Notes: generated by a model from the letters alone, not told the origin. A stretch of 64,000 nt of DNA from an uncultured Candidatus Saccharibacteria bacterium (GCA_964651115.1 CAZYXJ010000001.1:213077-277076), one strand, 5' to 3'. Positions 5,907 to 62,924 are shown, counted from the stretch's first letter. Made by a program: numbers and translations.

Positions 5907-5907
5907 G

Positions 5908-16890: not shown

Positions 16891-16903
16891 AAAATTGTAA
16901 ATT

Positions 16904-43117: not shown

Positions 43118-43498
43118 TTATTTCTCCTCCGGCGAGAGATCCAGGCAGACGGAATTAAGGCAGTAGCGCCGACCCGTAGCTGTGGGGCCGTCATCAAAAA
43201 CGTGCCCGAGATGAGAACCACACTGCGCGCAAACAACTTCGGTCCTTTCTAAACCATGAGAACGATCAGAAACTTCCTTGACTGAACCAGGCATCGCCTG
43301 ATCAAAAGACGGCCAGCCAGTACCAGAGTCGAATTTGGCCTCGGAGTTAAACAGTTGGTTGCCGCAAACTTTGCAATTGTAAGTGCCCGTCCGCTCCTCG
43401 TGGAGCAGCTGGCCAGAAAAAGGCGGCTCCGTCCCCTTCTCCCTCAACACGCGATACTCCTCGGGAGTTAAACGTTTTTTGATTTCTTGTTCGTCCAT
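43118..43498 (-). CDS. msrB: Peptide-methionine (R)-S-oxide reductase MsrB
   Basis: 126 aa with CxxC...CxxC zinc site (CKVCGNQL ... CAQCGSHLGHVF) and the SelR catalytic region. Confidence 0.9.
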   Translation of the reverse strand: MDEQEIKKRLTPEEYRVLREKGTEPPFSGQLLHEERTGTYNCKVCGNQLFNSEAKFDSGTGWPSFDQAMPGSVKEVSDRSHGLERTEVVCAQCGSHLGHVFDDGPTATGRRYCLNSVCLDLSPEEK

Positions 43499-43560
43499 AA
43501 ATTTTCCATTGATTAATTATAGCACTGCCTACCCCTGCCGCCGCTCAGAGAAGCTGCAAA
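43499..43560 (-). promoter_or_regulatory. msrB promoter: extended -10 (TGcTATAAT) plus a GC-rich upstream element shared with msrA. Includes an 11-nt stub of the msrA start (ATGGAAAATTT).
   Basis: The 39 bp at 43514-43552 are 37/39 identical to 62048-62086. The minus strand reads TTCTCTGAGCGGCGGCAGGGGTAGGCAGTGCTATAATTA. Confidence 0.6.
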
Positions 43561-43566
43561 TTAGTG

Positions 43567-44301
43567 CTAAACTTTGCCTAAGAAAACTTTTTCCAAAACA
43601 CCACTGGCAATGAGCGTAGTCGGCTGCCCCTCGGCGACCAGTAAGCCCTTATCAAGCACGTAGGCTCGGTCAGTAATTTCTAAAAGTGATTTAAGATTGT
43701 GCTCAACTACCACCACGGCGATCTGGCGTTTCTGATTAATCTCTTTAATCGTGGCAAAAATTTCCTTCACGATCTTGGGAGCAAGTCCTAGTGATGGCTC
43801 ATCGAGAAGCAGAACCTTAGGGTCGGTGACCAAGCCGCGAGCGATCGCGAGCATTTGCTGCTGGCCCCCAGAGAGCGTCCCCGATTTGGCTTTGAGTTTG
43901 GTTTTAAGCGCCGGTAAAAGGTCGAGAACTTCCGCAATCTTCTCTCTAACTAGTTTTTTGTTCTTAATCACGATCCCGCCTAATTCCAAATTTTCCTGCA
44001 CCGTCAGATGACGGAAAACCCGGCGGCCCTGCGGTACAAAAGTGATCCCCCGCAACACCATCTCGTGCGAGACTGGGGTAACCGACTCTTCGTGCCAGTA
44101 GACTTTGCCCCGCTCGATAGGCGCCAGGCCAAAGAGGGCCTTTAGAACCGTCGACTTCCCCGCCCCGTTGGGCCCCATCAAGGCCACCACCTCACCCTCA
44201 TCAATTGCTAGCGAAACACCGTCAAGCGCCTTCACGCCACCATAGTGGACATGGAGATCCTCTAGTTTTAGCAATTTTTCTGTAGCAACAGCCGTGGGCA
44301 T
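43567..44301 (-). CDS. livF: Branched-chain amino acid ABC transporter ATP-binding protein (LivF-like)
   Basis: Walker A GPNGAGKST, ABC signature LSGGQQQ, 244 aa. Confidence 0.8.
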   Translation of the reverse strand: MPTAVATEKLLKLEDLHVHYGGVKALDGVSLAIDEGEVVALMGPNGAGKSTVLKALFGLAPIERGKVYWHEESVTPVSHEMVLRGITFVPQGRRVFRHLTVQENLELGGIVIKNKKLVREKIAEVLDLLPALKTKLKAKSGTLSGGQQQMLAIARGLVTDPKVLLLDEPSLGLAPKIVKEIFATIKEINQKRQIAVVVVEHNLKSLLEITDRAYVLDKGLLVAEGQPTTLIASGVLEKVFLGKV

Positions 44302-44307
44302 GGTTTA

Positions 44308-45327
44308 TTAATTACCAGTTAAGATCGTTGGCTGGCCACCTTTAATTTGCTTCATGATAATCGGGCGGGTGTAGATGCCGCTAGCGTTAAACTTGGCGCC
44401 TGAGAGAAGATTACTTTTGACACAGCTGTAATCACCCTTACACTCCGTAACAGCTTGGACCAAAACCTCGGTTGCTTGTTTGGAGAGTCCAAAAACCGCC
44501 CCCTCGCTACCCTCCAAATCGCCAGGGAACGAATAAATCACATCGGGTACTAACTCACGCACGGCCGGTAATTCCGCTACGTAAGTTGTATAGACCGGCA
44601 CCATCACTTTAAGTTGGCGGAGCTTGGGTACGCCGCTGCCAAAGAAGAAGGAGATATCAGGTGAGTAGATAGCGTCAACGCCAGCTTTGCTAATCTTTAA
44701 TACCTCCGGCGAGAGATCAACAGTCTCGTCGGTTAAAACAACGTCTTGAGCGATTGTGCCCTTAAAGTTTTTACGGAAGCTGTCGGCGTGAGTCTGAGAG
44801 AAGGCGTTTTTAAAGCTCACCAGCGCCACCTTGCGATGACCACGAGCAAACATTTGCTCAGCCACAAACTTCGACTCCTCTTGGAGAGAATACTGGATAT
44901 TGAAGAAGTTGTTGCCGCTAGCCGCATACAAATCTGAGGAAGCGGCGGCTGGTACAATGGACAGAACCTCCTTACCCTTTAAAAGCGGCACAACCGCCTC
45001 TTGAGGCGAGCCGCAGGCGGGACCAATGATGTATTTAGCTTTATCAAACTCCGCTAATTTTTGATAAGCAGTTACCGCCACCTTTGGGTCACATTGATCA
45101 TCCTCAAAAATCAAACTAACAGCCGTCGTACTCCCAACACCAGCCTGCACACCTCGGCGGACCTCCTCACCATAATCAGCCAGTGGACCAGTAAGCGGCG
45201 CGATTACTCCTATTTTGACAGGTTCGCTTGTGCCCACAGGGCCATCTTTTTTAACCGCCACGCCAATACCCCACACCACCAGAATAATGACAATGATCGC
45301 GATTATAATTTTTGCTGTGTTGGACAT
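44308..45327 (-). CDS. PBP1/LivK-type substrate-binding protein, membrane-anchored (paralog 1)
   Basis: N-terminal TM anchor MSNTAKIIIAIIVIILVVWGIGVA, Peripla_BP_6-like domain. Confidence 0.7.
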   Translation of the reverse strand: MSNTAKIIIAIIVIILVVWGIGVAVKKDGPVGTSEPVKIGVIAPLTGPLADYGEEVRRGVQAGVGSTTAVSLIFEDDQCDPKVAVTAYQKLAEFDKAKYIIGPACGSPQEAVVPLLKGKEVLSIVPAAASSDLYAASGNNFFNIQYSLQEESKFVAEQMFARGHRKVALVSFKNAFSQTHADSFRKNFKGTIAQDVVLTDETVDLSPEVLKISKAGVDAIYSPDISFFFGSGVPKLRQLKVMVPVYTTYVAELPAVRELVPDVIYSFPGDLEGSEGAVFGLSKQATEVLVQAVTECKGDYSCVKSNLLSGAKFNASGIYTRPIIMKQIKGGQPTILTGN

Positions 45328-45337
45328 GGTGTTTTTG

Positions 45338-46081
45338 CTATTCTCCTAAATATGCCTCAATTACTTCTGGCTTTTTTAAAACTTCTTCTGGTAAACCTTG
45401 GGCCAAGAGCTGGCCGGCGTCCATCACGATTAAGTGATCACACAACTCGCGGATTAAATCCATGTTGTGCTCGACTAAAATAATAGTTTTACCTGCCGCC
45501 CGGAGCTCTTTAATTACGCTCACCACTGTTTTAATCATCTCAGGAAAGAGTCCGGCAAATGGTTCATCAAGAAAAATGATGGAGGCCGCGTTGTCACTAG
45601 CCGAGACCATCGCGAGCACGCGCGCGATCTCCAAGAGCTTGCGCTGACCATAAGAGAGATTAGCGGCTAACTCCCCGCGCTTCTCCCACAGACCAACTTT
45701 TTTAAGGGCCGCCTCAGCCTGAGCCACATGAAAATCTTTGTGCTTCTCAAACAGTGAGGCAAAAGTGTTCCGCTCTGTTAGGACCACCAAGATGTTATCG
45801 AGCACCGGCATTTGCTCAAAGAGTCGTACGTCTTGGAAGGTGCGGGTTACGCCGTACTCGGCTGACTCATAAGCGCGCAAGCGCGAGAGCTCAACGCCAG
45901 AAATTACGATCGCCCCCGCCTCAAACGGGAACATGCCAGTGAGAGTATTGATAAGAGTCGATTTGCCCGAGCCGTTGGGACCGATCACGCCAGTGATCTT
46001 GCCGGCAGCAAATTCAACCGAGAGCCGGTCTACCGCCTTAACCCCGTCAAATTGTTTGGAGAGACCGTGGGTTTTAAGCAT
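45338..46081 (-). CDS. livG: Branched-chain amino acid ABC transporter ATP-binding protein (LivG-like)
   Basis: Walker A GPNGSGKST, LivG-typical RTFQ motif, LSYGQRKLLEIAR signature. Confidence 0.8.
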   Translation of the reverse strand: MLKTHGLSKQFDGVKAVDRLSVEFAAGKITGVIGPNGSGKSTLINTLTGMFPFEAGAIVISGVELSRLRAYESAEYGVTRTFQDVRLFEQMPVLDNILVVLTERNTFASLFEKHKDFHVAQAEAALKKVGLWEKRGELAANLSYGQRKLLEIARVLAMVSASDNAASIIFLDEPFAGLFPEMIKTVVSVIKELRAAGKTIILVEHNMDLIRELCDHLIVMDAGQLLAQGLPEEVLKKPEVIEAYLGE

Positions 46082-46120
46082 CGTAGCCTAATTAAATAGG
46101 ATGTTGCCCCGACCGTCAAA

Positions 46121-46846
46121 TTACCGTTTTGGTCTAATTGAATAGCAAACCCAGGTGTAACCCAGGGCATTATTGTAGCGCCTGCCGACAACCTCACAAC
46201 CACAATCGCTAACTAAGTTCTCCAGCACCACAAAATCAGCATTGGGATCTTTAGTATTTGCGCTTTGCAGGTTAGAGTGAGTTAAGAGTATGTAGCCGCC
46301 TGGATTAATATGGTCTCTGGCCTCCTCAAATAGTCTTCGGTGCAGGACCATCCCCGGATCATAGAGCGCTGCGGTGATGCTTGTTTTTTCTGTGGGGACA
46401 GCGTTCGTAATGGGCAGATTAGCAATTATCCGATCATATTTTTTATTCCCCATTGCTGAGAAGAGATCACTTACGAATACCGATATTGTGTCTTCTAGAC
46501 CATTTAGTTGAACATTATGTTTGCTGCAAGCTACCGCCTCCGGAATAAGATCCACAGCATCAACGTGTTTGGCCCCTTTAATAACTGCCGCAATTGATTC
46601 GACACCAGTACCGCAACCGATGTCAGCAACATCCAAACCGCTCAAATCACCAAGAGCTTCATATAATGTGCGAGAGGACACGGAGTGATCAGCGGCCGGC
46701 GGAAAAATGCCAGGGAAGACATCGATTAAGATAATTTTGCCATCGATTTCGACATTCACCCGATAAGTTCCTTGGGCTTTCTTGCGCTCCAGTTCTTTGA
46801 CCATTCCCTGGGTCTGCGGGGAATCAGCTTGTGGTTTGATTTCCAT
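46121..46846 (-). CDS. SAM-dependent methyltransferase, MTS-domain type (RsmC/PrmA-like) with a degenerate motif IV
   Basis: DIGCGTG motif I. IANLPI is found where NPPF/NPPY is expected. Start overlaps the stop of the upstream SBP gene by 1 nt. Confidence 0.6.
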   Translation of the reverse strand: MEIKPQADSPQTQGMVKELERKKAQGTYRVNVEIDGKIILIDVFPGIFPPAADHSVSSRTLYEALGDLSGLDVADIGCGTGVESIAAVIKGAKHVDAVDLIPEAVACSKHNVQLNGLEDTISVFVSDLFSAMGNKKYDRIIANLPITNAVPTEKTSITAALYDPGMVLHRRLFEEARDHINPGGYILLTHSNLQSANTKDPNADFVVLENLVSDCGCEVVGRRYNNALGYTWVCYSIRPKR

Positions 46847-48006
46847 TACTCAGCCTTCACGAATTTACCCTCACGAACAGTCTTCATTTCAAAGGCTTCG
46901 ACTGGAGTCTCAACAAAACCCTTGTCATCAAACTCAATGAGAGGAATAGATACACTGCCCTCAAACCTCACCTTCTCTAAACCTGATCGAACATTCTCTC
47001 GATTAATTTCTTGGCCAGACTCAACAAGGCCCTTCATCACCTCCGCCAGAACCAAAACTGCGTTGTAAGAGGTAACAGCCGATGGCGACAATGGCTTTAG
47101 ATTAAATCTAGCTTCGTACGCCTTCTCAAACTGATCATAACCATGAGACTGGCTTGGCGTTGCAAAATATAGACGGTTTTGCATCAGCTCTGGGCATTCG
47201 CTCAAAGCTTTTGGCGTTCCGGCAGACTCGGTGGAGAGAAGAGGTAAAGGCGCTCCAAGTTCCTTAGACTGAGCCAAAAAGACACATTCCAACTCGGCAA
47301 AAGCGCCAAAGAAGGCGTCTGGGGATTTGGCCTTAGCCTTGCTAATCAAAGTTCGATAATCAGTAACGGCATAGTCCGTACCCATTTCTTTAGCCACCAC
47401 AGTAATACCAAATTCTGGCGCATTTTTTTCAACCAAGTTAGCAGTAAAAAGCCAGAAGCTAAAGTTTGCTGGCTGGACAATGGCAATCTTTTTCCAGCCC
47501 TTATTTTGAGCAAACTTGAGTAATTCTCTAATCCCCACTTCGTTCTTGGGCCAAGTAACAAAGAAATAAGGTGAGTTAACTTTAGACTCAATGTAGGTTG
47601 AGACATTGGGGCTCACCACTGGAGTTTTGTCAGCTGAAGAGATGGCAGCCACTACCTCGCCGTTACCGTCCCACTGAGGACCAACAATAGCGACTACATT
47701 ATCAACTGCAATTAACTTCTTGGCCGCTGCCGCTCCGCGTTTAAGATCAAGACCAGGAGCGTCTTCTGAAACCATTTCTATTTTCTTGCCACCCACCCCA
47801 CCTTGAGCATTTACTTCTTCCACCGCTAGCAGAGCCCCGTTCTTTTCCTCTGCACCAATTTCAGCGCCTAAGCCAGATTGCCCAGACATCTGCCCGATCT
47901 TGATAACCTCCGCCGAGACTGAATTAGGATTTTTGCTCTTGCTCGCCCAAACTCCCAGCCCCACCACCACCAGAATTATGACGATCCAAATTATTGTTTT
48001 TTTCAT
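46846..48006 (-). CDS. PBP1/LivK-type substrate-binding protein, membrane-anchored (paralog 2)
   Basis: MKKTIIWIVIILVVVGLGVWASK anchor, Leu/Ile/Val-binding-protein fold signatures. Confidence 0.7.
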   Translation of the reverse strand: MKKTIIWIVIILVVVGLGVWASKSKNPNSVSAEVIKIGQMSGQSGLGAEIGAEEKNGALLAVEEVNAQGGVGGKKIEMVSEDAPGLDLKRGAAAAKKLIAVDNVVAIVGPQWDGNGEVVAAISSADKTPVVSPNVSTYIESKVNSPYFFVTWPKNEVGIRELLKFAQNKGWKKIAIVQPANFSFWLFTANLVEKNAPEFGITVVAKEMGTDYAVTDYRTLISKAKAKSPDAFFGAFAELECVFLAQSKELGAPLPLLSTESAGTPKALSECPELMQNRLYFATPSQSHGYDQFEKAYEARFNLKPLSPSAVTSYNAVLVLAEVMKGLVESGQEINRENVRSGLEKVRFEGSVSIPLIEFDDKGFVETPVEAFEMKTVREGKFVKAE

Positions 48007-48009
48007 AGT

Positions 48010-48732
48010 TTATTTAATTCCCACAACAACAGCTTCCATCATTTTGCGATAAACCGTTTCCACACCCTTAAAACCAATCGAAGTCATAAACGTTTTTGCC
48101 TCCCCTTCAAAAAACACCAGATCTTCTTGTTCGTCACGTTCCATGTGTGCAAGCCACTCTTTTTTGTAATCCGACCGACCAATGGTGTCGTAAATGTCAT
48201 ATTTGGCAATTTGTTCTCTATAAATCTCTTGTCGCTTTTCTGGATCATCATGGGCATACTTATCACCATTAACAAAAATGCCACCCGGCTTTAAGACCCT
48301 GAAGATTTCTGAAATTATCTGTCGACGAAAGTTTTGTTCAAAATTATGGATCACGAAACCAGAAGCTACGGCATCAAATGATGAGTCTGGTATATTCTTC
48401 AAATATTCTCCGACCTCACTTTCAATTACCGTCACCCGATTGGAAGCTTGCCAACGATTAAGATTATCCTGGATTTGATCAATCATTTTTTTCTCATTAT
48501 CAACAGCCACAACGCGTACACGAGAATCTGAGTCAAGTAGAAACTTGGTAGTAATCCCGGTCCCACATCCGACCTCCATAGTTACAATACTCCCCACCTG
48601 AGAATCCTTGAAGTGCTCGCGGATAGCTTGCCCAACCGCCTGCTGAAGTTCATCATAGTGCGGGTAAGCCAACTTCAAAAGCTCATACTCTTCGCCCAGG
48701 ATATTATTAAATCTTTGATCGTTAGAAGTCAT
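48010..48732 (-). CDS. Class I SAM-dependent methyltransferase (Methyltransf_25/12-like)
   Basis: VGCGTGITTKFLL motif I; 240 aa. Confidence 0.65.
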   Translation of the reverse strand: MTSNDQRFNNILGEEYELLKLAYPHYDELQQAVGQAIREHFKDSQVGSIVTMEVGCGTGITTKFLLDSDSRVRVVAVDNEKKMIDQIQDNLNRWQASNRVTVIESEVGEYLKNIPDSSFDAVASGFVIHNFEQNFRRQIISEIFRVLKPGGIFVNGDKYAHDDPEKRQEIYREQIAKYDIYDTIGRSDYKKEWLAHMERDEQEDLVFFEGEAKTFMTSIGFKGVETVYRKMMEAVVVGIK

Positions 48733-48737
48733 TTTAT

Positions 48738-49847
48738 TTATTTCAGAGGAATAATTCTATTTTTCTCAACTTTAAAGAACAGCACTGGTTTATGAGCATT
48801 GCCGTCATCATCAAAAGTCATCGTGCCAGATGCGCCAACAAACTCTTTAATATTACTGAGAGATTTAGCAACTAGCTCTGGATCAGTCGACCCGACATCG
48901 CTGATCGCCTTGATGTATAGGTTAAATGCATCATAAGCCTGATTAGCCGGAAAACCAACCTCTCGCTGATATTTAGATTGGAATTTTTTATTAAACGCAC
49001 TATCAACTGTATCAGTAGAAACAAAGATCGTTCCTTCCAAAGAACCTTGGGCTTGATCGATCGTAGGCTGAAACAACAATACAGAGAAAAATGGGATCGT
49101 CATCCCTAAATCTCGCAGCCGCTGGGCAGAAACGGCCGTTTGTCCATAATTAGTAAAAACAACGGCCTCTGGATTAGACGTTTTTATCTTCGTTGCTTCG
49201 GTTCGCAAATCTTTGTTGTCGACGGTAGGCAGTTGAATTGAGACTACGGCTCCACCAAGCTCTTCAAATTTTTTCTTTACAAAATTAGCCTGGTCCATCT
49301 CCCACTCTTGCTGAGAGCCAAATATAGCAATCTTTCGAAATCCTCTTTGCTTATAGAGATACTCGGCCAAGGTAAAACTATCAAATTTGTTAGGCGGAAA
49401 AACATCAAAAGTTCTTGGACTCATTTCAGCAAATTTTTCTGACCCGACTGACGGAGAAATAATTACTACGTTTGCCTTTTCTGCTACAGGAGCCAACACC
49501 GTCGCTGTGGGAGTGAAATCCGGACCAATTATCAAACGCACATCACGATTTATTAGGTTATAAAGCGCCGATAATCCACCTTTGGGATTATCGCCAAGAT
49601 TATCCTCATAAACCATTTCAACCGGTCGGCCCAATACGCCTCCAGCTTGATTAACTTCTCCAACAGCCAGATCAATACCTCGTTTGGCATTCTCACCGGT
49701 ATCAGCAAAGTTACCGGTTAAATTGAGGATTGCGCCAATCTTAATTGGGCCATCAGTATTATTTGACATCTGCCCATCACGATAAAACCACGCCCCCAAC
49801 CCAACCAGCACTAGAATTATGACAACCCAAATAACGATTTTTTTCAT
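48738..49847 (-). CDS. PBP1/LivK-type substrate-binding protein, membrane-anchored (paralog 3)
   Basis: MKKIVIWVVIILVLVGLGAWF anchor; ...IKIGAILNLTGNFADTGENAKRGIDLAVGEVNQAGGVLGRPVEMVYEDN... is the classic LivJ/K N-lobe. Confidence 0.75.
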   Translation of the reverse strand: MKKIVIWVVIILVLVGLGAWFYRDGQMSNNTDGPIKIGAILNLTGNFADTGENAKRGIDLAVGEVNQAGGVLGRPVEMVYEDNLGDNPKGGLSALYNLINRDVRLIIGPDFTPTATVLAPVAEKANVVIISPSVGSEKFAEMSPRTFDVFPPNKFDSFTLAEYLYKQRGFRKIAIFGSQQEWEMDQANFVKKKFEELGGAVVSIQLPTVDNKDLRTEATKIKTSNPEAVVFTNYGQTAVSAQRLRDLGMTIPFFSVLLFQPTIDQAQGSLEGTIFVSTDTVDSAFNKKFQSKYQREVGFPANQAYDAFNLYIKAISDVGSTDPELVAKSLSNIKEFVGASGTMTFDDDGNAHKPVLFFKVEKNRIIPLK

Positions 49848-49850
49848 ATT

Positions 49851-50930
49851 TTATTCTAGATCTGTTAGCTGACCACCTTTTACCGCCATAATTTTAGTTT
49901 CTGGCTTGCGATTACCGGTGCCGTCAAACTCGATCTTGCCGCCCACACCCGCAAAGTTTGCAGCCTTAAGATTTTTGACCCAAGTGGCCTGATTAGCGTC
50001 ATAGGTTGCGACCAGCAAATTAAACGCATCGTAGCCGATATCAGACAAAAAGCCAGGATCAGCATTAAAGCGAGCTTTGTACTTAGCTTTAAACTCATCG
50101 GCCACGTCCGACTTTACCGTTCCGACAATCGTGCCATCAAGAACCTTCATATCACCCAAGATACGCTGGTAATCAGAGAAGCCAGATTGGAAGTTGGTGT
50201 CAAAAAAGAATTGCGGATTATTTTTCTTAATCTTCAAAAATTCTTGCATAAAGCGAGCGCCCTGCTGCGGCACAATAAAGAGACCGATCGTACTGGAGTT
50301 GCTAGCGGCCACCTTTAAAGCGTGGGGTCGGAGATCCTTTTCGTCAGCCTGGATAACAAAATCAGTAGTTGTACCCTGGAAGCCTTGTTTAAAACTTTCT
50401 ACAAAGCGGACCATGGCATCAATATTGCTGTAGACAATCGCCATCTCTTTAACACCCTTCTCTCTCATATACACTCCGTACTCATACTCAGAAGCGATAC
50501 TGTTGGGCAAAATACCAAGCACGTTATCATCAGCCGGCTCTCGTCCCTGCTCGCCCATTTGGATAACCGGTAGATCGGTTGTCGTTACCGCACCATAAAT
50601 CGCATCGATCGTCGGCGTAGAAACATTGATCAGCGCCTGGATCTGATTGCTCGTAATCAATTTTTGATAAGCACTGAGTCCCTTGCCACCATTAAAGCCA
50701 TCATCCTCCATAAAAACATTTATCTTAGCATCAGGATGCGCTTGATTATATTCCTCACTAGCCAAAACAACGCCGTTGCGGATGTTCTCGCCGACGGCCG
50801 CGTAATCTCCGCTAAGAATGGCGATGAGTCCTAGATTAAAACTTTTAGCTTGCTGATTGTTGCCAGACCAAACAACCGCCCCGATCACAATAATGGCAAT
50901 GATAACTACCCAAATAATTATTTTTTTCAT
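49851..50930 (-). CDS. PBP1/LivK-type substrate-binding protein, membrane-anchored (paralog 4)
   Basis: MKKIIIWVVIIAIIVIGAVVW anchor; PBP1 fold. Confidence 0.7.
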   Translation of the reverse strand: MKKIIIWVVIIAIIVIGAVVWSGNNQQAKSFNLGLIAILSGDYAAVGENIRNGVVLASEEYNQAHPDAKINVFMEDDGFNGGKGLSAYQKLITSNQIQALINVSTPTIDAIYGAVTTTDLPVIQMGEQGREPADDNVLGILPNSIASEYEYGVYMREKGVKEMAIVYSNIDAMVRFVESFKQGFQGTTTDFVIQADEKDLRPHALKVAASNSSTIGLFIVPQQGARFMQEFLKIKKNNPQFFFDTNFQSGFSDYQRILGDMKVLDGTIVGTVKSDVADEFKAKYKARFNADPGFLSDIGYDAFNLLVATYDANQATWVKNLKAANFAGVGGKIEFDGTGNRKPETKIMAVKGGQLTDLE

Positions 50931-50935
50931 ATTGG

Positions 50936-52057: not shown

Positions 52058-52123
52058 GACTCTAGTCTAGCAAGCTCGGGTGAACTGTAAAGCAAAAGTT
52101 GACTATACTGGTTTTATTGCCCG

Positions 52124-53239: not shown

Positions 53240-53378
53240 AATAGCATTATACAGATGAGCTATTTTATTGTATATAGATGAGGCTCGGTTGGACCGTTTC
53301 TCAAAAATATGCTTATTTATAGCGCTGGAACGGTTTTTATAATTTGACTAAAAATTAGTCACAAGCTATACTCAGCTG

Positions 53379-54203: not shown

Positions 54204-54212
54204 TCTGGGGAT

Positions 54213-55091
54213 TTAAATCTTATACTCCCCGATCAGGCCTTGAGGGCGGTAGAGCATAAGGACGATTAGCAAGAGGCCATAGACGGCTTGGCGCATTTGC
54301 GCCGCAATATCGGTGGGAAAGCCCACAAAACGCAAGGCCTCAGGCAACAGGATCAAACAAACCGCCCCCAAAACTGAGCCGCGGAGATTGGCCAGTCCGC
54401 CGAGAATAATAATCGCCAGCAAAAAGATCGACTCATTAAGCGAGAAAGTGGAAGGATCAATAAAGGTGATATAAGAAGCAAAAAGTGAGCCTGCTAGTGC
54501 CGCCAATCCAGCACTAATTACAAAGATCAGAAGTTTGTAATTAAAGGTGTGATAACCAAACACCCGGATCGCCTCCTCGTCCTCACGAATCGCCTTTAAA
54601 ACTCGGCCAAACGAGGATTTAACAATCAAACGTGATACAAGGTAAACCAAAGCAAGCGCTACGGCGGTTAAAACCAGAAACTCAAGGTTTGAGTTAAGGT
54701 CCAATTTCCAATTACCAATTCCTAAGGAGGGGCGAGTAATCCCGGGGACACCCAAGGGGCCGCGAGTTACTGATTGCCAGTTGAGAAAGATACTATAAAT
54801 GATGATGTTGAAGCCAAAGGAGCCGAGAGCGTAAAAGTCTTCGCGGAAGCGCGAGAGCACCACGCCCACTACCACCGAGACCAACATCGCGATAATCATC
54901 CCGATCAAAGTTGCCAAGAAAAAGTTCAACCCCATTCCTGTTAGCAGCAGCGCTGTGGCGTAAGCGCCAATGCCATAAAAGGCGGCTTGAGTGATGGAAA
55001 GGAGACCAGTGTAGCCAACGATCAGATTTAAGCTGATCCCCAAGATCCCGTAGATACCGATCAGAATGGCTAAGTGGATTAAATATTCCAT
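54213..55091 (-). CDS. livM: Branched-chain amino acid ABC transporter permease (LivM-like)
   Basis: 292 aa, ~8 TM helices, BPD_transp_2 family pattern. Confidence 0.75.
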   Translation of the reverse strand: MEYLIHLAILIGIYGILGISLNLIVGYTGLLSITQAAFYGIGAYATALLLTGMGLNFFLATLIGMIIAMLVSVVVGVVLSRFREDFYALGSFGFNIIIYSIFLNWQSVTRGPLGVPGITRPSLGIGNWKLDLNSNLEFLVLTAVALALVYLVSRLIVKSSFGRVLKAIREDEEAIRVFGYHTFNYKLLIFVISAGLAALAGSLFASYITFIDPSTFSLNESIFLLAIIILGGLANLRGSVLGAVCLILLPEALRFVGFPTDIAAQMRQAVYGLLLIVLMLYRPQGLIGEYKI

Positions 55092-55093
55092 GG

Positions 55094-55972
55094 CTACTTT
55101 TTAAATAGACCCTGCGGGCGAAATAAAAGAAACAGAAGCAGGAGCACGAAGGCGATCGCATCCTTCCACTCCCCGGCCAACTTCCAAATCCCAAAATTTT
55201 CTACAAAGCCCAAAATAAAAGCCCCGATGATCCCACCCCAAATATTACCGGCGCCACCAATAATCGCCGCGATCACTCCTTTTAGGAGGAGTGATAACCC
55301 CATCGTTGGCTCGATACCGGTATCAAAGCCGATCATGATCCCCGCCAACCCAGCAATGGCCGAGCCGAGAAAGAAAACGGTGGCAATCACATTGCTGGTA
55401 TTGATCCCCACGATTTTAGAAACCTCTTCATCATCGCCCACGGCCCGGATGGCTTTACCGATCGCCGTGTATTTAAGAAAGAGTCCCAGCAGCACGCCGA
55501 TCACCAGGACCAGGGCCACAATAATAAGCTGGACCTGAGTGATTACGCCGCCGGCAATCTCGTAGACCTGACCGCTGCCGGCGGCGCGACTTAGGGTCTG
55601 GAACTGACTAGTAAAGAGCATGGCGATAATCGCCTGGAGCATGGTAAAGGCACCCAGGGAGGCAACTAGCAAAACCATGTTGGAAGCTTTGCGCTTCCGA
55701 AGCGGTCGATAAACTAGATAGTTAATCAAAAGCCCGATCAAACCAGCCACCAAGACGCCCAAAACCACCGCCCACCATAAGTCGCCACCAAGTTTTTTAT
55801 AAAAAAAGAAAACGGTATAACCACCCACTGCCGTGAGAGCACCATAACCAAGATCAAAAAACTTGACCGTACCAAAGATTAAATTAAAACCGAGCGCCAA
55901 GAGAGCATAGATGGCGCCAGCAATAATGCTATTAGCAACAAGTTGTGGCAAGATATCCATATATATTTTCAA
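55094..55972 (-). CDS. livH: Branched-chain amino acid ABC transporter permease (LivH-like)
   Basis: 292 aa, multi-TM, BPD_transp_2 family pattern. Confidence 0.75.
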   Translation of the reverse strand: MKIYMDILPQLVANSIIAGAIYALLALGFNLIFGTVKFFDLGYGALTAVGGYTVFFFYKKLGGDLWWAVVLGVLVAGLIGLLINYLVYRPLRKRKASNMVLLVASLGAFTMLQAIIAMLFTSQFQTLSRAAGSGQVYEIAGGVITQVQLIIVALVLVIGVLLGLFLKYTAIGKAIRAVGDDEEVSKIVGINTSNVIATVFFLGSAIAGLAGIMIGFDTGIEPTMGLSLLLKGVIAAIIGGAGNIWGGIIGAFILGFVENFGIWKLAGEWKDAIAFVLLLLFLLFRPQGLFKK

Positions 55973-56028
55973 CCAAACTATAACAGCAACCTGAGCTGAC
56001 TACAAATCAGGTCCGGAATAAAACAAGC

Positions 56029-57135
56029 CTACTCTGCCATTCTCACAAACTTACCATCCTGGATAGATTTAAAGTAAAACTCTCTTTGAATGGTGTTCTG
56101 GTCAAAAGACATGACCCCACTTACTCCTTGGTAATTATTTAGTTGTAAAATGTAATCTCTGACACAAGACGAATTATTTTTGCCACAACTCTCAAGGGCA
56201 TCAATCAATATTTTGTATATATCGTAAGCATTGTAAGCCGCCACTTGAGGCCGTCCGCTGGTTACCTTTTGAAATTCGCTGATAAACTTTTGCTGAGCAC
56301 TAGTAAGAGAGCTCTCGTTAATTGGGAAAGTGTAAACCAATCCCTCCAAGCTACTACCTCCAGCCGCCACCAAATCAGACGCCTCTGTCGCGTATTGACC
56401 AAACAGAGGTACATCTATTCCTAATTCTCTGGCCTGTTTAGCAATTTGCCCGACTCCAGCCCCATTGTAGACAATATATAGAGCATCCGGGGCGGCCTTT
56501 TTGAGTTTAAGCAGGCTGGTTCGAAAATCCTGCGACCCAACAAGGAAAGGCTCGGCCCCAACCAAAACTCCACCACGTTTTTCTGTTTCCTCTTTGAACG
56601 ATCGGTAATGAAGGAGACCAAAATCATTGTTCATATAGATAATGGCCGGTTTTTGTTTTTTAAGTTTGGTGACAATTAATTCCGCCAACACTCGTGCCTC
56701 ACTGTCTGCTTCATGGGAGCCCTTGATCACATATCCCTCGATCTTATTGGCCGCACCCCAGGGTGTGAAGGCGACGATTTGGTTTTGGCTGGCTAGAGGT
56801 TTTACCGCTTCTATTCCGGAACTATTTAGCGGACCCACAATGGCGTCGACACCATCTACCGTCACTAATTTATTGAAGGCTGATACCGCTTTTTCTGAAG
56901 TAAATCCATCATCTTCGTAGACAAGTTCAACCTTTTCGCCATAATCTTTATTGGCGATCTCCAAGGCTGCCCTGATATCCTCTCCTACCTTAGCCTGAGC
57001 CCCCGTTAAAGGAATAACCACACCAATCTTAATCGGCTCGCCCCTCACCGGGCTCGCCTCGTCTCTCCTGCTCGCCCACACTCCTAACCCCATCACTACC
57101 AGAATTATGACGATCCAAATTATTACCTTTTTCAT
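56029..57135 (-). CDS. PBP1/LivK-type substrate-binding protein, membrane-anchored (paralog 7)
   Basis: MKKVIIWIVIILVVMGLGVWASRRDE anchor; PBP1 fold. Confidence 0.7.
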   Translation of the reverse strand: MKKVIIWIVIILVVMGLGVWASRRDEASPVRGEPIKIGVVIPLTGAQAKVGEDIRAALEIANKDYGEKVELVYEDDGFTSEKAVSAFNKLVTVDGVDAIVGPLNSSGIEAVKPLASQNQIVAFTPWGAANKIEGYVIKGSHEADSEARVLAELIVTKLKKQKPAIIYMNNDFGLLHYRSFKEETEKRGGVLVGAEPFLVGSQDFRTSLLKLKKAAPDALYIVYNGAGVGQIAKQARELGIDVPLFGQYATEASDLVAAGGSSLEGLVYTFPINESSLTSAQQKFISEFQKVTSGRPQVAAYNAYDIYKILIDALESCGKNNSSCVRDYILQLNNYQGVSGVMSFDQNTIQREFYFKSIQDGKFVRMAE

Positions 57136-57137
57136 AT

Positions 57138-57893
57138 CTAATTATTTAATATAAGCTCGTGCATGTAAATCATCCCTCTTTGGAGGTTGTTGATTGAATT
57201 GTGTAACCAGGTCGTTTGTACCTCATAACCAAGCTTTTCCCCAACAATTCTGGGATCAGTTAAGTCACCACCCAAACTGTAGGAAGGAATCGCAATCACA
57301 CCCTGAGGGTTAAGGTGCTCTTTCGCTTCAACCAGAAATCTCTCAAACAGCTCGGGCAGCATGAGCATGCTGGCAGAAATGGTATCACCTTCTGGAGACT
57401 TACCAGCAAAAAACGGGATCATCCAAGTTATTAGATCCGCTTTTTCGTCGATCTTTTCAAATAAGTCACCCTGGACGACAGAAGCAATCGCCTCAACATT
57501 AAATCTTTTTATATTCTCCTGCGTATTTTCCACAGCCGGAAGGGAAACATCAGACATAACGACTTTCTTGGCTCCATACTTGGCCATTATTACTCCCATT
57601 AGCCCAGTACCTGATCCTATTTCAATTGCAGTTTTATTAAAAAAGAGAGCATTGTGATAAAAAAGATAACGAGCGTGATAACGACCCGAAGCAATTAGAG
57701 GATTCCACACCCCCTTTTTGATCAGAAAGTTTTTCAGAGTGTCGTCCTCCCCGCTTACGTCGTAGTTTACTTCAAAATCTTCGTGTTGGTGTTTTTCCCA
57801 TTGGGTCAAAACCAGATTTCTCTGGTCTTGATTTAGCATCTTTAAGTTATCCTCTTGGAGAGTCGCTTCCCGCTTATCCATATGCCTTTTCAA
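57138..57893 (-). CDS. SAM-dependent methyltransferase (MTS/PrmA-like small-domain type)
   Basis: IEIGSGTGLMGVIMAKYG motif I; 251 aa; 3-nt gap to the downstream SBP gene. Confidence 0.6.
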   Translation of the reverse strand: MKRHMDKREATLQEDNLKMLNQDQRNLVLTQWEKHQHEDFEVNYDVSGEDDTLKNFLIKKGVWNPLIASGRYHARYLFYHNALFFNKTAIEIGSGTGLMGVIMAKYGAKKVVMSDVSLPAVENTQENIKRFNVEAIASVVQGDLFEKIDEKADLITWMIPFFAGKSPEGDTISASMLMLPELFERFLVEAKEHLNPQGVIAIPSYSLGGDLTDPRIVGEKLGYEVQTTWLHNSINNLQRGMIYMHELILNN

Positions 57894-57932
57894 CCAAACT
57901 ATACCTTATTCCTTGTATTGTTTCCAACGGTA

Positions 57933-59054
57933 TTAACGTAGTGATTTATAGCCGCCAGGTATACCATCTTTAGACAACACGATCTGCCACAGTTGGATAC
58001 TGCGAGCCCGAAAAGCTCCCGCACAGGCTAGCAAATAATAACGCCACATCCGTCGGAAGCGCTCAGAGTAATTTTGCTTGATCTGATCCCAACTGCGCTC
58101 AAAGTTTTGCTGCCAGGCCATTAGAGTCTTATCGTAATCAGAACCAAAATTGTGCCAATCTTCCATCACAAACAGGCCCTCAATCCCTCGGGCCATTTGG
58201 GCGACACTTGGCAAAACACCGTTAGGAAAAATGTACTTATCGATCCAAGGATCCGTTACCCTTGAGCCCACACTTTTACCGATCGTGTGGAGCAAAAAGA
58301 GTCCGCCATCTTTTAAGCAACGGCGGGCCACCTCAAAATAGCTGCGATAATTTTTATCACCCACATGCTCAAACATCCCCAACGACACAATCGCATCAAA
58401 CTGGCCGGTTAGATCACGATAGTCTTGCAATAAAATCTCGACCGGCAAACCCTGACACAACTCCATCCCAAGAGCCACCTGCTCCTTAGAAACAGTGACA
58501 CCAGTAACCCGCACCCCGTAACGCTCGGCCGCAAACTTGGCAAAGCTGCCCCAACCACAACCAATATCCAAAACGTGCATCCCGGGTTTAAGATTAAGCT
58601 TTTGGCAAACCAAATCTAATTTGGCCTCCTGCGCCTCATCGAGTGAGTTCGCCTGGCGCCAATAAGCACAAGTGTAGACCAAGCGTCGATCCAACATTTG
58701 GCGGTAAAGATCGTTGCCGGCATCGTAATGCTCCTCGCCCACCATAAAAGCCCGAGACTTTGATTGGCGGTTAAAAAGAGTGTTTATTAGATAAGAAAGG
58801 GCGAGTTGCCAACCCCCTCGAACTTGCTGGTGGAGTTTGGCGCGAAATATTTTATCGAAAAATTGATCCAGCTCCTGGGCGTCCCACCAACCATCCATAT
58901 AACTCTCTCCTAAAGCCAAGGAACCGCCGGCCAAAACCCGAGCGTAAAAACGTTCATCGTGGATCTGGATATCCCCCGGCGCGGCACCATTAATGGTAAC
59001 GCCAGCCTTGGCAAGCAGGTCAGTAATCAGCCGTTTAGCGGTTATAGTTGACAT
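57933..59054 (-). CDS. Cyclopropane-fatty-acyl-phospholipid synthase family methyltransferase (CFA synthase / mycolic-acid MTase-like)
   Basis: 373 aa; VLDIGCGWGSFAKFAAERYG motif I; C-terminal CMAS-family region. Confidence 0.75.
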   Translation of the reverse strand: MSTITAKRLITDLLAKAGVTINGAAPGDIQIHDERFYARVLAGGSLALGESYMDGWWDAQELDQFFDKIFRAKLHQQVRGGWQLALSYLINTLFNRQSKSRAFMVGEEHYDAGNDLYRQMLDRRLVYTCAYWRQANSLDEAQEAKLDLVCQKLNLKPGMHVLDIGCGWGSFAKFAAERYGVRVTGVTVSKEQVALGMELCQGLPVEILLQDYRDLTGQFDAIVSLGMFEHVGDKNYRSYFEVARRCLKDGGLFLLHTIGKSVGSRVTDPWIDKYIFPNGVLPSVAQMARGIEGLFVMEDWHNFGSDYDKTLMAWQQNFERSWDQIKQNYSERFRRMWRYYLLACAGAFRARSIQLWQIVLSKDGIPGGYKSLR

Positions 59055-59133
59055 CGTTTTAAACTATCATGAAGTTTTTCCAAACGCCAACCACCCGCCT
59101 CTCGGCGGGTGGTTGGGAATAAACCTTAATTTT

Positions 59134-60252
59134 TTACTGACTGATCGTCACCGGCTTGCCGTCTTTAATCATGCGCACTACGGCCTTAGAATTTACAACG
59201 CCATTATCATCTATTGTTAGGTCCTTACCAAGAGCACCATCAAACTTAGGAATATCGGCGATTGCATCACGGATCTCACTTCTGCTGGGCTTAACTTCTC
59301 CGTTGCCCGCAGACTCTGTGGCCATAACAATCAGGTTAAGAACATCGTAGGCGTTAGCAGCGCCAAACTTTGGTCCTTGGTCATAGCGTTTAGTATATAA
59401 GTCAACAAACCATTGAGTTGGATCAGCGCCATTGACGTACCACATCCCCTCAAACAGTGACAACTGATCAGAAAACTCAAAAGCTTCCATCGTTGTTACC
59501 GGTGTCGTGATTCCGGCCTCACGCATTTGTTTGGCAAGAATTTCCAATTCGGGCGTGGTTGCCTCAAGAACATAGATGTCGGCACCCGAGATTTTAAAAC
59601 CCTTATCGATAAGGGTTTTAAAATCTCGGGTGCCAGTGTTAAACTTCTGAGTCGAAAGCACTTGGATATTAGTATTTTTTATATCCTTCTCGAAGCTGTT
59701 AATGATTGCTGCTACCCCTTGGTTATCTTGCTGCGCAAAAAAGACAAGCTTTTTTATGCCTCTTTTTTGTAACTCTTGAATAAAGAGCCGCGAATCCTCA
59801 TACGGTGGTGTGTAGTGAACAAAGTTATACTCACCGTCAGCCACCTGAGAAGCCGAAGCAAAGTCATTAATATGAGGCACTCCATTTTTCTCGGCAATCG
59901 GACTAATCACACTGCCCACCGGCGACCCAAAAGATACCAAAACGTCTGCCTTATCAATGGCGATAAGCTTGTTCGCCACGGTCGCACCCAGAGCTGGCTT
60001 AAACTGATCGTCTTCAAAGATAAGTTTGTAGTTATATTTGAGATTTTTTGGCAATCCCTCCTGTGCCAAGGTAATTGCGTTTTTGGCACTTTGGCCAAGC
60101 ATGGCTACGTCTCCGGTCAACGGCAAACTAACGCCAACGATAACTGTTGGTCTCATCGCCTCTGGGACTTGAGAATCTTGCCTGGTCAAAACCAGGCCTA
60201 TCAGGACGATGATGACAAGACCAATAATGGTCCAAATTATTTTTTTATTCAT
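59134..60252 (-). CDS. PBP1/LivK-type substrate-binding protein, membrane-anchored (paralog 8)
   Basis: MNKKIIWTIIGLVIIVLIGLVLTRQDS anchor; PBP1 fold. Confidence 0.7.
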   Translation of the reverse strand: MNKKIIWTIIGLVIIVLIGLVLTRQDSQVPEAMRPTVIVGVSLPLTGDVAMLGQSAKNAITLAQEGLPKNLKYNYKLIFEDDQFKPALGATVANKLIAIDKADVLVSFGSPVGSVISPIAEKNGVPHINDFASASQVADGEYNFVHYTPPYEDSRLFIQELQKRGIKKLVFFAQQDNQGVAAIINSFEKDIKNTNIQVLSTQKFNTGTRDFKTLIDKGFKISGADIYVLEATTPELEILAKQMREAGITTPVTTMEAFEFSDQLSLFEGMWYVNGADPTQWFVDLYTKRYDQGPKFGAANAYDVLNLIVMATESAGNGEVKPSRSEIRDAIADIPKFDGALGKDLTIDDNGVVNSKAVVRMIKDGKPVTISQ

Positions 60253-60421
60253 ATATGATTATAAATATATCTTATATCCACTCAAGCATAAACTAGATTT
60301 TTCTCTTGTCATTAATAATTATCTAATTGCCACAGGAAATATGGCCTTAACTAAAGGTTTTTTAACTTATTAATTTTTTTGTTCGTTAAAAGTGACAAAT
60401 GTTTAAATACGTGTTAGAGTT

Positions 60422-61222
60422 ATGGTTATGATAAATAGCCAAGTAACTAACCAGTTAAAGGACACTGGTCTAAGCGAGAAAGCAGCCTTAGTTTATACCA
60501 CCTTACTTAAACTTGGTGGGGCCTACCCTTCTAGCCTCGCAGCCGCCACCAAGCTTAACCGTAGTACCGTTTATAAACTTCTCCTAGATCTATCAATAAA
60601 AGGATTGGTCACCGAGGTTGAACGAGGCAAAAAACTTTACTACCAAGCTGAAAAACCTGAAAAATTACTTAGGTTTGCAAAAAATCAAGCCGATTTAGCC
60701 AAAGGGGCTTACGACCAGATTCGACAACTAATACCAGAGCTCGAAACGATTTTTGCTTCCAATCCCAACAAACCGGTAATCCGCTACTTCCAAGACAAGG
60801 CCGGCATTGCTTCTATCTACGAAGAAATGGTATCTGAAAAAAAATATGAAATGGTCTCTTTTTCCCACGGAGAAGCTTTTAAGAATTACCTGCCCACTGC
60901 GGCACTAAGGAAATTTGTGCGCGCAAAAGAGCGCAATGGCATCACCACCCGAGCGATTGCTCCAGACACGGAGGAAAACCGAAAATATACCACTGCCGTT
61001 TTTGAGGGTATCAAGAAAGACTTCTGGCTAGAGATCCGTTATGTTCCTAACGAATTTTTTCCTTTCGAGGCGGAAATTACGCTTTATGGAAACTCGAAGC
61101 TGGCGCTAACAAAACTGCGCGGCGACAAGTTAATCGGTGTTGTTATCGACGAAAAATTGATTCATGACATGTTCAAAATGATTTTTGAACTAGTCTGGCG
61201 CTCAGATCAAGTTAAGAAATAA
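60422..61222 (+). CDS. TrmB-family winged-helix transcriptional regulator
   Basis: N-terminal TrmB-like HTH (GLSEKAALVYTTLLKLGGAYPSSLAAATKLNRSTVYKLLLDLSIKGLV); it is a paralog of the 53379 regulator. Divergent from the SBP array. Confidence 0.6.
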   Translation: MVMINSQVTNQLKDTGLSEKAALVYTTLLKLGGAYPSSLAAATKLNRSTVYKLLLDLSIKGLVTEVERGKKLYYQAEKPEKLLRFAKNQADLAKGAYDQIRQLIPELETIFASNPNKPVIRYFQDKAGIASIYEEMVSEKKYEMVSFSHGEAFKNYLPTAALRKFVRAKERNGITTRAIAPDTEENRKYTTAVFEGIKKDFWLEIRYVPNEFFPFEAEITLYGNSKLALTKLRGDKLIGVVIDEKLIHDMFKMIFELVWRSDQVKK

Positions 61223-61434
61223 CCGCCCATGCGGAGACTTCAGAAACAAAGTTCTGGGAATCACCAGAGATGCCAAGATTCGGCCAGACAAACTCGACGC
61301 TAGAGGTTATATGAAATACTTTCTTGAGAAAGGAGCAACTCGAGGGAAACAAAAACTGATACAGTAGTTTATAAGTCGATTATTACTTATCAATAAAAGA
61401 GTCACAGTCGCCGGTAATGCTCTGGAGAGTTTTC

Positions 61435-61496
61435 GCTCCCTCAACACGCGATACTCCTCGGGAGTTAAACGTTTTTTGATTTCTTGTTCGTCCATA
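61435..61496 (-). pseudogene. Duplicated 5' fragment of msrB (first 20 codons + 1 nt), 10 nt downstream of msrA
   Basis: The 62 bp at 61435-61496 are identical to 43438-43499. The ORF-track peptide MDEQEIKKRLTPEEYRVLRE is identical to the MsrB N-terminus and then diverges into nonsense. Confidence 0.8.
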
Positions 61497-61505
61497 GTGA
61501 ATAAA

Positions 61506-62045
61506 TTATTTTAGCAAAGCGGCAAAACGCGCCTGCAACTTTTCTAACTTAGGCGCGATCACGAGCCGACAATAATCCTGGTCGGAATGACGCTCGTAAT
61601 ACTCCCGATGATAATCCTCCGCTTCGTAGAATTGCTGAAGCGGAACGACCTCGGTGACGACCGGGTCAGGAAAAGCATTGGCCCGGTTAAGCTCCTGGAC
61701 TAACGTCGCCGCCTCGGACTGCTCCGTCGCGTTGCCGTAAAAAATGGCAGAGCGGTACTGCGAACCCACATCATTGCCCTGGCGATTAAGCGTTGTGGGA
61801 TCGTGAGTGTTAAAAAAGACAGCTAACAGGTCGGCGTAAGAGATCACCGCGGGATCATAACTAATCTTGATCGCCTCAGCGTGGCCAGTCTCGCCCGTGC
61901 TTACCTCGTCGTAGGTTGGATTTTCAGTCGTACCGCCAGCATAGCCCGGCACCACCGACCGCACACCATTGAGCCGCCGAAAAACCGCTTCTGTGCACCA
62001 AAAACAGCCATTAGCAAAAACCGCCGTTGCCAAATTTTCCATCAA
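61506..62045 (-). CDS. msrA: Peptide-methionine (S)-S-oxide reductase MsrA
   Basis: 179 aa with the catalytic GCFWC motif (FANGCFWCTEAVF). Confidence 0.9.
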   Translation of the reverse strand: MMENLATAVFANGCFWCTEAVFRRLNGVRSVVPGYAGGTTENPTYDEVSTGETGHAEAIKISYDPAVISYADLLAVFFNTHDPTTLNRQGNDVGSQYRSAIFYGNATEQSEAATLVQELNRANAFPDPVVTEVVPLQQFYEAEDYHREYYERHSDQDYCRLVIAPKLEKLQARFAALLK

Positions 62046-62100
62046 ATTAATTATAACACTGGCTACCCCTGCCGCCGCTCAGAGAATTTGAGGAACAGGT
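62046..62100 (-). promoter_or_regulatory. msrA promoter: extended -10 (TGtTATAAT) plus the GC-rich upstream element shared with msrB
   Basis: The 39 bp at 62048-62086 are 37/39 identical to the msrB upstream region. The minus strand reads TTCTCTGAGCGGCGGCAGGGGTAGCCAGTGTTATAATTAATTTG-ATG. Confidence 0.6.
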
Positions 62101-62545: not shown

Positions 62546-62924
62546 GGCCCAACTATACTCTAATCCCGAAATACTACAAACGGAACTATGCGAAGTATCT
62601 ACTGACCGAAGGATCGATGTTTGAAAAGGGAGATCTGCTTAGTAATCTCAGAAGTAAAATTCGTGTTCGTAATAAGCTAGTCGAATCAAGTTCTGGCTGA
62701 AAACCTGTTACACTTTAATTCTCTGGAAAACAACCGCAAGTGTCTGTTAAGAGCATGGCTAGACTCTGCGAAAAAACCTCGTCAGAGCAGCATAAATACT
62801 GACCGAAGTTAAATAATTGAACCAAAGACTCATTTTCATTCTCGATAGGACCATCCTTTCGTTTTCCTTCGGTATAAAATATTCCCTTTTTTGGAGATAT
62901 GGACATGAATAGCCATATATCTTT

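Follow-up and report, generated by a model that had tools for sequence, protein, structure and literature searches.

When an element enters its target by Campbell integration, including elements whose attachment region rebuilds the target gene, the insert comes to be flanked by direct repeats of the target. In the duplication-degeneration-complementation model, copies of one unit each keep a complementary subset of it. Operons can also die by insertion, and in 'The Life-Cycle of Operons' Price, Arkin and Alm (2006; PMC1480536) found that 11 of 66 dead Escherichia coli operon pairs had probably been destroyed in this way. In other bacteria, the two genes occur as msrA-msrB operons or as MsrAB fusions; the msrAB operon of Bacillus subtilis (PMC2518928) consists of msrA followed by msrB, co-transcribed. 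Here we describe an operon of the same two genes in a 64-kb stretch of DNA (64,000 nucleotides (nt); hereafter, the window) from an uncultured Candidatus Saccharibacteria bacterium (GCA_964651115.1, CAZYXJ010000001.1:213077-277076), in which intact msrA and intact msrB are separated by a cluster of liv-type amino-acid-transporter genes and each gene is accompanied by a partial copy of the operon. All operon and repeat features are read on the minus strand.

The locus resembles the published cases of operon death by insertion (PMC1480536) in that the operon is conserved in relatives and split here, with both genes kept, still near each other, and unrelated genes lying between them. It differs from those cases in that a duplicated stretch of the operon borders the insert on either side, that msrB inherits a copy of the original promoter and need not recruit a new one, and that scars can still be read in the sequence as a 60-nt gene fragment and an 11-nt stub. 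As in duplication-degeneration-complementation, two direct copies are found, one holding promoter P and msrA and the other promoter P' and msrB; however, the unit here is an operon rather than a gene with subfunctions, the copies lie 17.9 kb apart rather than in tandem, and full completeness of both copies is not implied. With the B. subtilis operon, the locus shares the two enzymes and their order, whereas the operon of Patescibacteria appears to be leaderless (-10 box 6-7 nt before the ATG) and is split in this genome. As a trace of genome rearrangement, the split is neat but unexceptional: the operon died by insertion, and a partial duplication flanks the insert.

Two partial copies of one operon flank the liv array

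Along the minus strand, the order of the elements is orf160, P, msrA, 10 nt, the first 60 nt of msrB (msrB'), the 17.9-kb liv cluster, 24 nt of the orf160 end, P', 11 nt of msrA, full-length msrB and TspO (Table 1). The full msrB is located 18.0 kb downstream of msrA, and only the 60-nt fragment occupies the operon position. A repeat search of the window revealed a direct repeat identical at 61 of 61 positions (43439-43499 and 61436-61496), which consists of msrB codons 1-20 (60 nt) and the base preceding the ATG (T), as well as a second repeat, P/P', identical at 39 of 41 positions (43512-43552 and 62046-62086). After a small TG/CAA indel, the likeness of the P repeat extends through ATGGAAAATTT (43499-43509, matching 62032-42), the first 11 nt of msrA. 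In a pattern search, both repeats had two copies each in the window and no more, with none expected from shuffled sequences. The two direct-orientation copies (61/61, 39/41 and the 11-nt stub) are therefore far above chance, as a segmental duplication should be.

This arrangement had been outlined in an earlier note on the same DNA. The two partial copies indeed bracket the array in direct orientation, the 11-nt msrA stub does precede intact msrB, and the identity of 37/39 given there for the duplicated promoter agrees with our 39/41 over a longer, 41-nt span. The right copy likewise contains P, msrA, a 10-nt spacer and an msrB fragment as described, except that the match given there as 62 nt is 61 nt long, the outermost pair of bases (T at 43438, G at 61435) being different.

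Altogether, the segment from 62086 to 61436 (651 bp) has a counterpart on the other side of the array, from which 536 bp, extending from msrA nt 12 through the spacer, are missing; the joint of this deletion shows only 1 nt of microhomology. The right copy of the 61-nt repeat, preceded by the msrA spacer, is followed by CGAAAAC, and the left copy, preceded by the stub, is followed by AAGGGGAC. P and P' differ by two substitutions and a small complex indel over ~54 nt (five differences), whereas the 61-nt repeat has no differences. The repeat search of the window found no inverted repeat pairing the two boundaries of the array, and neither a tRNA nor an Rfam feature was found at the junctions. 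The P repeat was not found in the 85 related loci searched; its presence in just two copies in the window and in none of those loci rules out a dispersed repeat or mobile promoter.

The contiguous operon in related genomes

Our comparison set comprised 45 Patescibacteria msrA loci (Paceibacteria-type). In 29 of these, msrB lies downstream of msrA on the same strand at a distance of at most 60 nt; in 4 the distance is 61-120 nt, in 9 it is 329-909 nt, and it is never greater. Two of the remaining three loci are without msrB, and in the third the contig ends too soon. Among the non-Patescibacteria msrA loci of the same scan, msrB was almost never adjacent. The window falls outside the bicistronic spacing of 0-120 nt seen in 33 of the 45 loci, with both its PMSR and SelR genes intact. 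Because msrB follows msrA within 909 nt in 42 of the 45 loci, including the closest relatives, the comparison indicates that the contiguous promoter-msrA-msrB operon is ancestral, as the earlier note had proposed, and that the 18-kb split is derived and unique to this genome. The situation that the earlier note had named as speaking against its view, a native distance of 18 kb between the two genes in relatives, was not encountered.

The three closest relatives (L001, L081 and L082) have msrB genes 93-95% identical to that of the window and share the arrangement msrA, 5-nt spacer, msrB, which in L001 and L081 runs on into TspO; L081 and L082 are short contigs (msrB 94-95% identical). In L001, the closest of the three, the order is tRNA-Gln, TATAAT, 7 nt, msrA, 5 nt, msrB, TspO, and the identity to the window is 93% for msrB, 91% for TspO and 80-90% for further genes. 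L001 is collinear with the window from 43518 down to 37021 at 82-88% nucleotide identity, except for ~4 kb present in L001 only. No liv array was found in L001, the sole close relative with long flanks. The L001-only segment (7540-11492 of that locus) carries open reading frames (ORFs) of 561, 285 and 191 amino acids (aa) and lies between homologues of a 181-aa ORF (42170-42715) and a 138-aa ORF (41736-42152) that are adjacent in the window.

In the nine loci with 329-909 nt between the two genes (L002, L004, L005, L013, L016, L020, L023, L037 and L045), a single small gene lies in between. Among these genes are an opposite-strand PadR-like regulator (L004, L005 and L045), a GIY-YIG nuclease (L023) and a cupin (L020). 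In most cases, a -10-like box 6-9 nt from its ATG then belongs to msrB alone. The msrA/msrB joint thus appears to have been broken repeatedly, with msrB presumably regaining a promoter each time, which in the window would have come about by a copy of the operon's own promoter.

A probable duplication around the incoming cluster

The best explanation of these observations, and in our judgement a moderately probable one, is that a segment of at least 651 bp was duplicated around an incoming liv cluster and that 536 bp of msrA were then deleted from one copy. The duplicated segment would extend from 24 nt before the orf160 stop (62086) to msrB nt 60 (61436) and would have come to flank the cluster as the latter arrived. 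A tandem duplication may have come first, providing an interior that could be disrupted without harm, or duplication and insertion may have been one event. The later loss of 536 bp (msrA nt 12 through the spacer) from the downstream copy would have removed a redundant gene and, together with it, most of the repeat homology able to loop the array out. On paper, precise excision is possible: a crossover between the 61-nt repeats would take out 17,997 bp and give back the ancestral operon without a scar. A crossover within the exact 24-nt block of P would take out 18,534 bp, msrA included.

The earlier note had proposed reciprocal gene loss. For the left copy this stands, since a 536-bp deletion of msrA is needed to account for the remaining stub and promoter. 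On the right, the msrB fragment has no decayed remainder and may mark the end of the duplicated segment rather than a lost gene body: in the joint that follows it, blastn and tblastx revealed no similarity to the remaining part of msrB, and the joint resembles neither the rest of the window nor any of the fetched loci. These comparisons rule out that the fragment is followed by a decayed msrB body; the truncation is clean.

Several points weigh against this reconstruction. P and P' have diverged while the 61-nt repeat is exact, which is odd for one event, the numbers being too small to decide, and the deletion joint has just the 1 nt of microhomology. If the tandem duplication came first, extra trimming or a concerted mechanism is needed for the insertion to fall exactly at the joint. 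No genome with the msrA type of the window (>74% identity) was found in the searched collections, so that there is neither an empty site of the same lineage nor an intermediate stage. Furthermore, msrA is 71% identical to that of L001, no better than to any other from Paceibacteria, whereas the neighbours are 80-93% identical, and synteny with L001 stops exactly at the msrB ATG; the upstream half (orf160-P-msrA) could be non-native. Finally, the promoter activity of P and P' is predicted from sequence and comparison, and the stub puts a 5'-terminal, out-of-frame AUG ahead of msrB, so that efficient translation of msrB from P' is not assured.

We also considered ordering the events by the divergence of P/P' versus that of the 61-nt repeat. 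This was abandoned because the sites are too few (~0.02-0.1 for P, depending on how TTG/CA is counted).

Table 1. Coordinates of the operon copies, the intervening array and their immediate neighbours in the window
Feature	Position	Strand	Description
orf160	62063-62545	-	upstream of msrA; small membrane protein with a non-conserved C-terminal tail that overlaps P
P, right copy	62046-62086	-	orf160 end, CCAGTGT, -10 box TATAAT at 62050-62055, TGT before it (extended -10)
msrA	61506-62042	-	intact, 178 aa from ATG; PMSR 6.9e-65; in-frame TTG at 62045
msrA-msrB' spacer	61496-61505	-	10 nt, TTTATTCACT
msrB'	61436-61496	-	right copy of the 61-nt repeat; truncated msrB, codons 1-20
Joint	61223-61435	-	213 nt, non-coding, between msrB' and the convergent TrmB gene
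Array	43553-61435	-	17,883 bp, 18 genes by Pfam
TrmB-like regulators (two)	53379-54203 and 60422-61222	+	divergently transcribed
livH	55094-55972	-	liv-type ATP-binding cassette (ABC) importer
livM	54213-55091	-	liv-type ABC importer
livG	45338-46081	-	liv-type ABC importer
livF	43567-44301	-	liv-type ABC importer
P', left copy	43512-43552	-	orf160-end relic 43529-43552 (non-coding), GCAGTGC, TATAAT at 43516-43521, TGC before it
msrA stub	43499-43509	-	ATGGAAAATTT, 11 nt, starts 6 nt past the -10 box; not in frame with msrB
msrB	43118-43498	-	intact; SelR 9e-50; left copy of the 61-nt repeat made up of its first 60 nt and the T before the ATG
TspO	42615-43091	-	downstream of msrB

Assembly support for the left junction

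The window comes from a metagenome-assembled genome, and exact repeats are classical points of mis-joining. The organism is present in runs SRR14271372 and SRR14271375. A Logan contig from the latter (L086) is 100% identical to the window over livF, P', the stub and msrB nt 1-60, and terminates exactly where the 61-nt repeat does. In another run, a second assembler has therefore recovered the left junction, as well as a branch of the graph where the repeat ends. Such a branch fits an integrated array and an intact operon accompanied by a 17,997-bp circle alike, and cannot distinguish between the two.

If the contig were a chimera, strains or loci would have been joined at short repeats and no single genome would be so arranged, a possibility to which the short Logan contigs of the same organism, breaking at the repeat, might also point. 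However, each junction k-mer must exist in the reads, the joint from livF through P' and the stub into msrB recurs base for base in the other run, and P and P' are distinguishable by their five differences and thus are not collapsed copies. Moreover, the 61-nt repeat is shorter than normal reads, so that single reads of ordinary length span it, and for this reason a wrong assembly path or a chimera is unlikely. We consider it extremely improbable that no single genome has this arrangement.

Native or foreign origin of the two sides

The msrA of the window has a GC content at third codon positions (GC3) of 0.59, like that of the native flank. Its best non-self homologue among 5.8 billion proteins searched is 74% identical, and a scan of genomes also yielded 74% at best. 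Upstream of it, orf160 has no Pfam match, and its best hit among 90 representative homologues is 54% identical, the alignments stopping near residue 140. In L001, msrA (5615-6246) starts ~20 nt after the tRNA-Gln gene and has a GC3 of 0.41, compared with 0.6-0.68 in its neighbours; it probably represents a xenologous replacement in the sister lineage. Because the GC3 of the window's msrA fits the genome and that of the L001 gene is the outlier, we take P-msrA-msrB of the window, with moderate confidence, to be native to its lineage.

Just upstream of orf160, remains of a large serine recombinase are found on the plus strand (62582-63503). The ORF at 62925-63503 has only a Zn_ribbon_recom domain (2.4e-7), the catalytic N-terminal domain being absent, and a fragment at 62582-62657 is 71% identical to the C-terminal end of this ORF. 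The GC content at 62000-64000 is 0.40-0.42. The remains suggest past activity of a mobile element just upstream of orf160. Taken with the low GC content there, the 71% identity of msrA to its L001 counterpart and the break in synteny at the msrB ATG, they point to a replacement on one of the two sides.

Could the right copy (orf160-P-msrA-msrB') have come with such an element? In that case, the native msrA, of the L001 type, would have been lost, and the repeats would stem from later recombination between foreign and native msr sequences. The contrast in identity to L001 (71% for msrA versus 93% for msrB and 91% for TspO), the end of synteny at the msrB ATG, the absence of a close homologue of this msrA anywhere searched, the recombinase debris and the low GC content of that region are all consistent with such an origin. 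Yet msrA has the GC3 of the host genome, with L001 msrA as the compositional outlier, and msrB' is 100% identical to the resident msrB; in addition, P' next to the resident msrB is of the P type and not of the L001 type, for which extra events would be needed. A foreign right copy is accordingly quite unlikely in our view.

The stub region (43499-43518) is identical at 16 of 20 positions to the 3' end of L001 msrA and its spacer (6233-6251 of that locus; AATTAATTAAGTAAAAATT), and three of the five differences between P and P' match the L001 state. This likeness is probably a coincidence of AT-rich sequence; it could hint at a homeologous crossover.

Predicted promoters and expression of the separated genes

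Both P and P' carry TGnTATAAT. In the right copy, TGTTATAAT with the following 7 nt and the msrA ATG (62040-62042) spans 62040-62058. The same geometry, with a -10-like hexamer at a distance of 6-7 nt from the start codon of msrA, is seen in ~20 of 43 related loci. A consensus sigma-70 scan does not call P (there is no -35 match), and its assignment as a promoter rests on the extended -10 box and on the conserved position in relatives. These features imply that a leaderless msrA-msrB transcript may well be the norm of the clade. The P region has a second content, since the 24-nt block TTCTCTGAGCGGCGGCAGGGGTAG (62063-62086) constitutes the last 8 codons and the stop of orf160. The spacer TTTATTCACT between msrA and msrB' has no Shine-Dalgarno sequence.

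After the split, P would still drive msrA, and transcription would stop in the joint before the convergent TrmB gene, where a weak terminator-like hairpin is located at 61253-61268. On the other side, msrB would be transcribed from P', which starts 14 nt past the livF stop (43567). Read-through from livF probably contributes as well, since the 68 nt between the end of livF and the start of msrB showed no terminator-like site. The stub opens an ORF of 13 codons (MENLWTNKKSKNV, then a stop) that overlaps the msrB start. A chimeric ORF of 62 aa opens at msrB' (61307-61495) and combines 20 aa of MsrB with 42 aa from the joint, with no Pfam match; it would be co-transcribed with msrA.

Within the array, SBP372, a substrate-binding protein (SBP) gene, has TATAAT 5 nt before its ATG (60253-60270). 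Leaderless starts seem to be common in this genome and not particular to msrA.

The window thus offers what may be a readable case of a tightly packed operon of a reduced genome broken by a large insertion with expression of neither gene lost, msrB keeping a duplicate of the operon's own predicted leaderless promoter. It also documents the apparently leaderless msrA-msrB unit as the norm in Paceibacteria-type Patescibacteria and the repeated invasion of the msrA/msrB joint by small genes. The locus can serve as a worked example of how operons evolve, and the presence or absence of the array may be a marker of structural variation at the strain level. It opens no new mechanism and settles no outstanding question.

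Origin of the intervening array

In addition to the importer genes and regulators listed in Table 1, the array encodes eight Peripla_BP_6 binding proteins and four S-adenosylmethionine (SAM) methyltransferases, one of which is similar to cyclopropane-fatty-acid (CFA) synthase. No recombinase, transposase, integrase, replication, partition or transfer gene was recognized by Pfam among the 18 ORFs, and there is no unannotated gap >213 nt. The earlier note had left room for amplification of the array through the msr duplication; this did not hold up, as the eight binding-protein paralogues are only 24-33% identical to one another and the two TrmB genes have no mutual match. Recent amplification in situ is ruled out by the same paralogue identities.

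The core order SBP-livH-livM-TrmB (opposite strand)-SBP-livG-SBP-livF recurs in another locus, L084, where it is chromosomal and adjoins YchF, with no msr genes nearby; TrmB, SBP371, livG, livF, livH and livM of that locus are 70-82% identical to those of the array. For livM, hundreds of Patescibacteria homologues are 70-79% identical, with the nearest at 79%. The GC content of the array is 0.40-0.52 versus 0.52-0.55 in the native flank; the GC3 of the core liv genes (0.57-0.58) is near-native, and that of the extra binding-protein and methyltransferase genes is lower. In the 64-kb window, there is no second liv locus, nor are there L084 flank genes (YchF and others) that would betray a former site. 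By these comparisons, the array is an ordinary, somewhat expanded Patescibacteria liv locus that now resides within an msr operon.

The locus works like the scar of a Campbell integration, yet it lacks key traits of an integrative element or a transposon. Target-derived direct repeats, as expected of an integrative element, are present (61 nt, msrB 5' end), and an integrase of its own is absent within the repeats; the same element was not found in other genomes or at other sites (the nearest livM is 79% identical, and the L084 cluster is without msr sequences). The locus does not have the hallmarks of an insertion sequence (IS) or composite transposon, given that there is no transposase domain, there are no inverted repeats at the boundaries, and the duplicated target is 651 bp rather than 2-14 bp long.

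One alternative to duplication around the cluster is a Campbell-type integration, in which a circular unit of 17,997 bp (array, P', stub and msrB nt 1-60) crossed once into the first 60 nt of msrB in an intact operon. The promoter copy carried by the circle would keep msrB expressed, and the 61-nt repeats would allow precise excision; in a variant of this scenario, the contig shows the integrated path and the cell really holds an intact operon and a circle. The layout is that predicted for a single crossover, with an upstream copy that is complete at the 5' end and truncated at the 3' end and a downstream copy, truncated at its 5' end, that runs into the full gene, so that the target is left intact with a promoter. 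The crossover segment is 100% identical, with P' diverged, the GC content of the array is below that of the flank, and L086 stops at the end of the repeat, as it would at a graph branch where integrated and excised paths are indistinguishable. Unlike in known integrations of this kind, however, the insert has no integrase, replication, partition or transfer gene among its 18 genes, its cargo is a housekeeping-type transporter locus, and no second occurrence was found. The sole trace of a recombinase is a truncated remnant beyond the repeats, the window seems to hold no liv importer other than that of the array, and the core order is chromosomal in L084. Moreover, the circle must already have acquired an msrA-deleted piece of the same operon, which pushes the problem back, and a 61-nt repeat below normal read length makes mis-resolved assembly unlikely. 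Overall, we regard Campbell-type integration as unlikely.

A more daring version of the same idea would see the array as an integrase-free 'plug-in' cassette that carries a copy of the target's promoter and the first 60 nt of msrB, and enters and leaves the msr operons of related Patescibacteria by RecA-type crossover (e.g., after DNA uptake), with both msr genes kept expressed. If true, the cassette would be a reversible, homology-addressed nutritional island; we give this proposal very little credence.

The near-native GC3 of the core liv genes is also compatible with an origin in the same genome, as required if one template-switching replication error, similar to microhomology-mediated break-induced replication (MMBIR) or fork stalling and template switching (FoSTeS), made all three joints at once. 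Replication would have left msrB at nt 60, copied a liv locus elsewhere in the genome, returned to a point 651 bp upstream (orf160 -24), copied P and the first 11 nt of msrA, and finally switched to the msrB ATG, making separate steps of duplication, insertion and deletion unneeded. Three blunt or near-blunt joints (0-1 nt of microhomology) in one small locus and the promoter-sized piece kept in the left copy, about -38 to +11, are in line with this path. Nevertheless, it is improbable: joints of this type usually have microhomologies of 2-5 nt, unlike those at this locus, a second liv copy is absent from the 64-kb window, and the differences between P and P' beside an exact 61-nt repeat oppose a single recent origin. 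Duplication of the operon segment around the incoming cluster, followed by the deletion in msrA, remains our preferred reading.

Further observations in the array and the window

The coding sequence of SBP372 contains a perfect palindrome of 54 nt (59581-59634; 27-nt arms, no spacer). The L084 homologue aligns across it with a 1-aa gap (GTRDFKTLIDKGFKISGA versus GETDFRSLISK-VKNTVA), the first arm being conserved and the second less so, as if template switching had written a copy of the first arm over the second. In L084, a 23S_rRNA_IVP-family gene (PF05635; 2977-3375 of that locus) is located between livH and livM. Elsewhere in the window, a second stretch of low GC content was observed at 16001-20000 (0.437 versus ~0.52-0.55 around it), which includes a 1124-aa ORF at 18759-22133.

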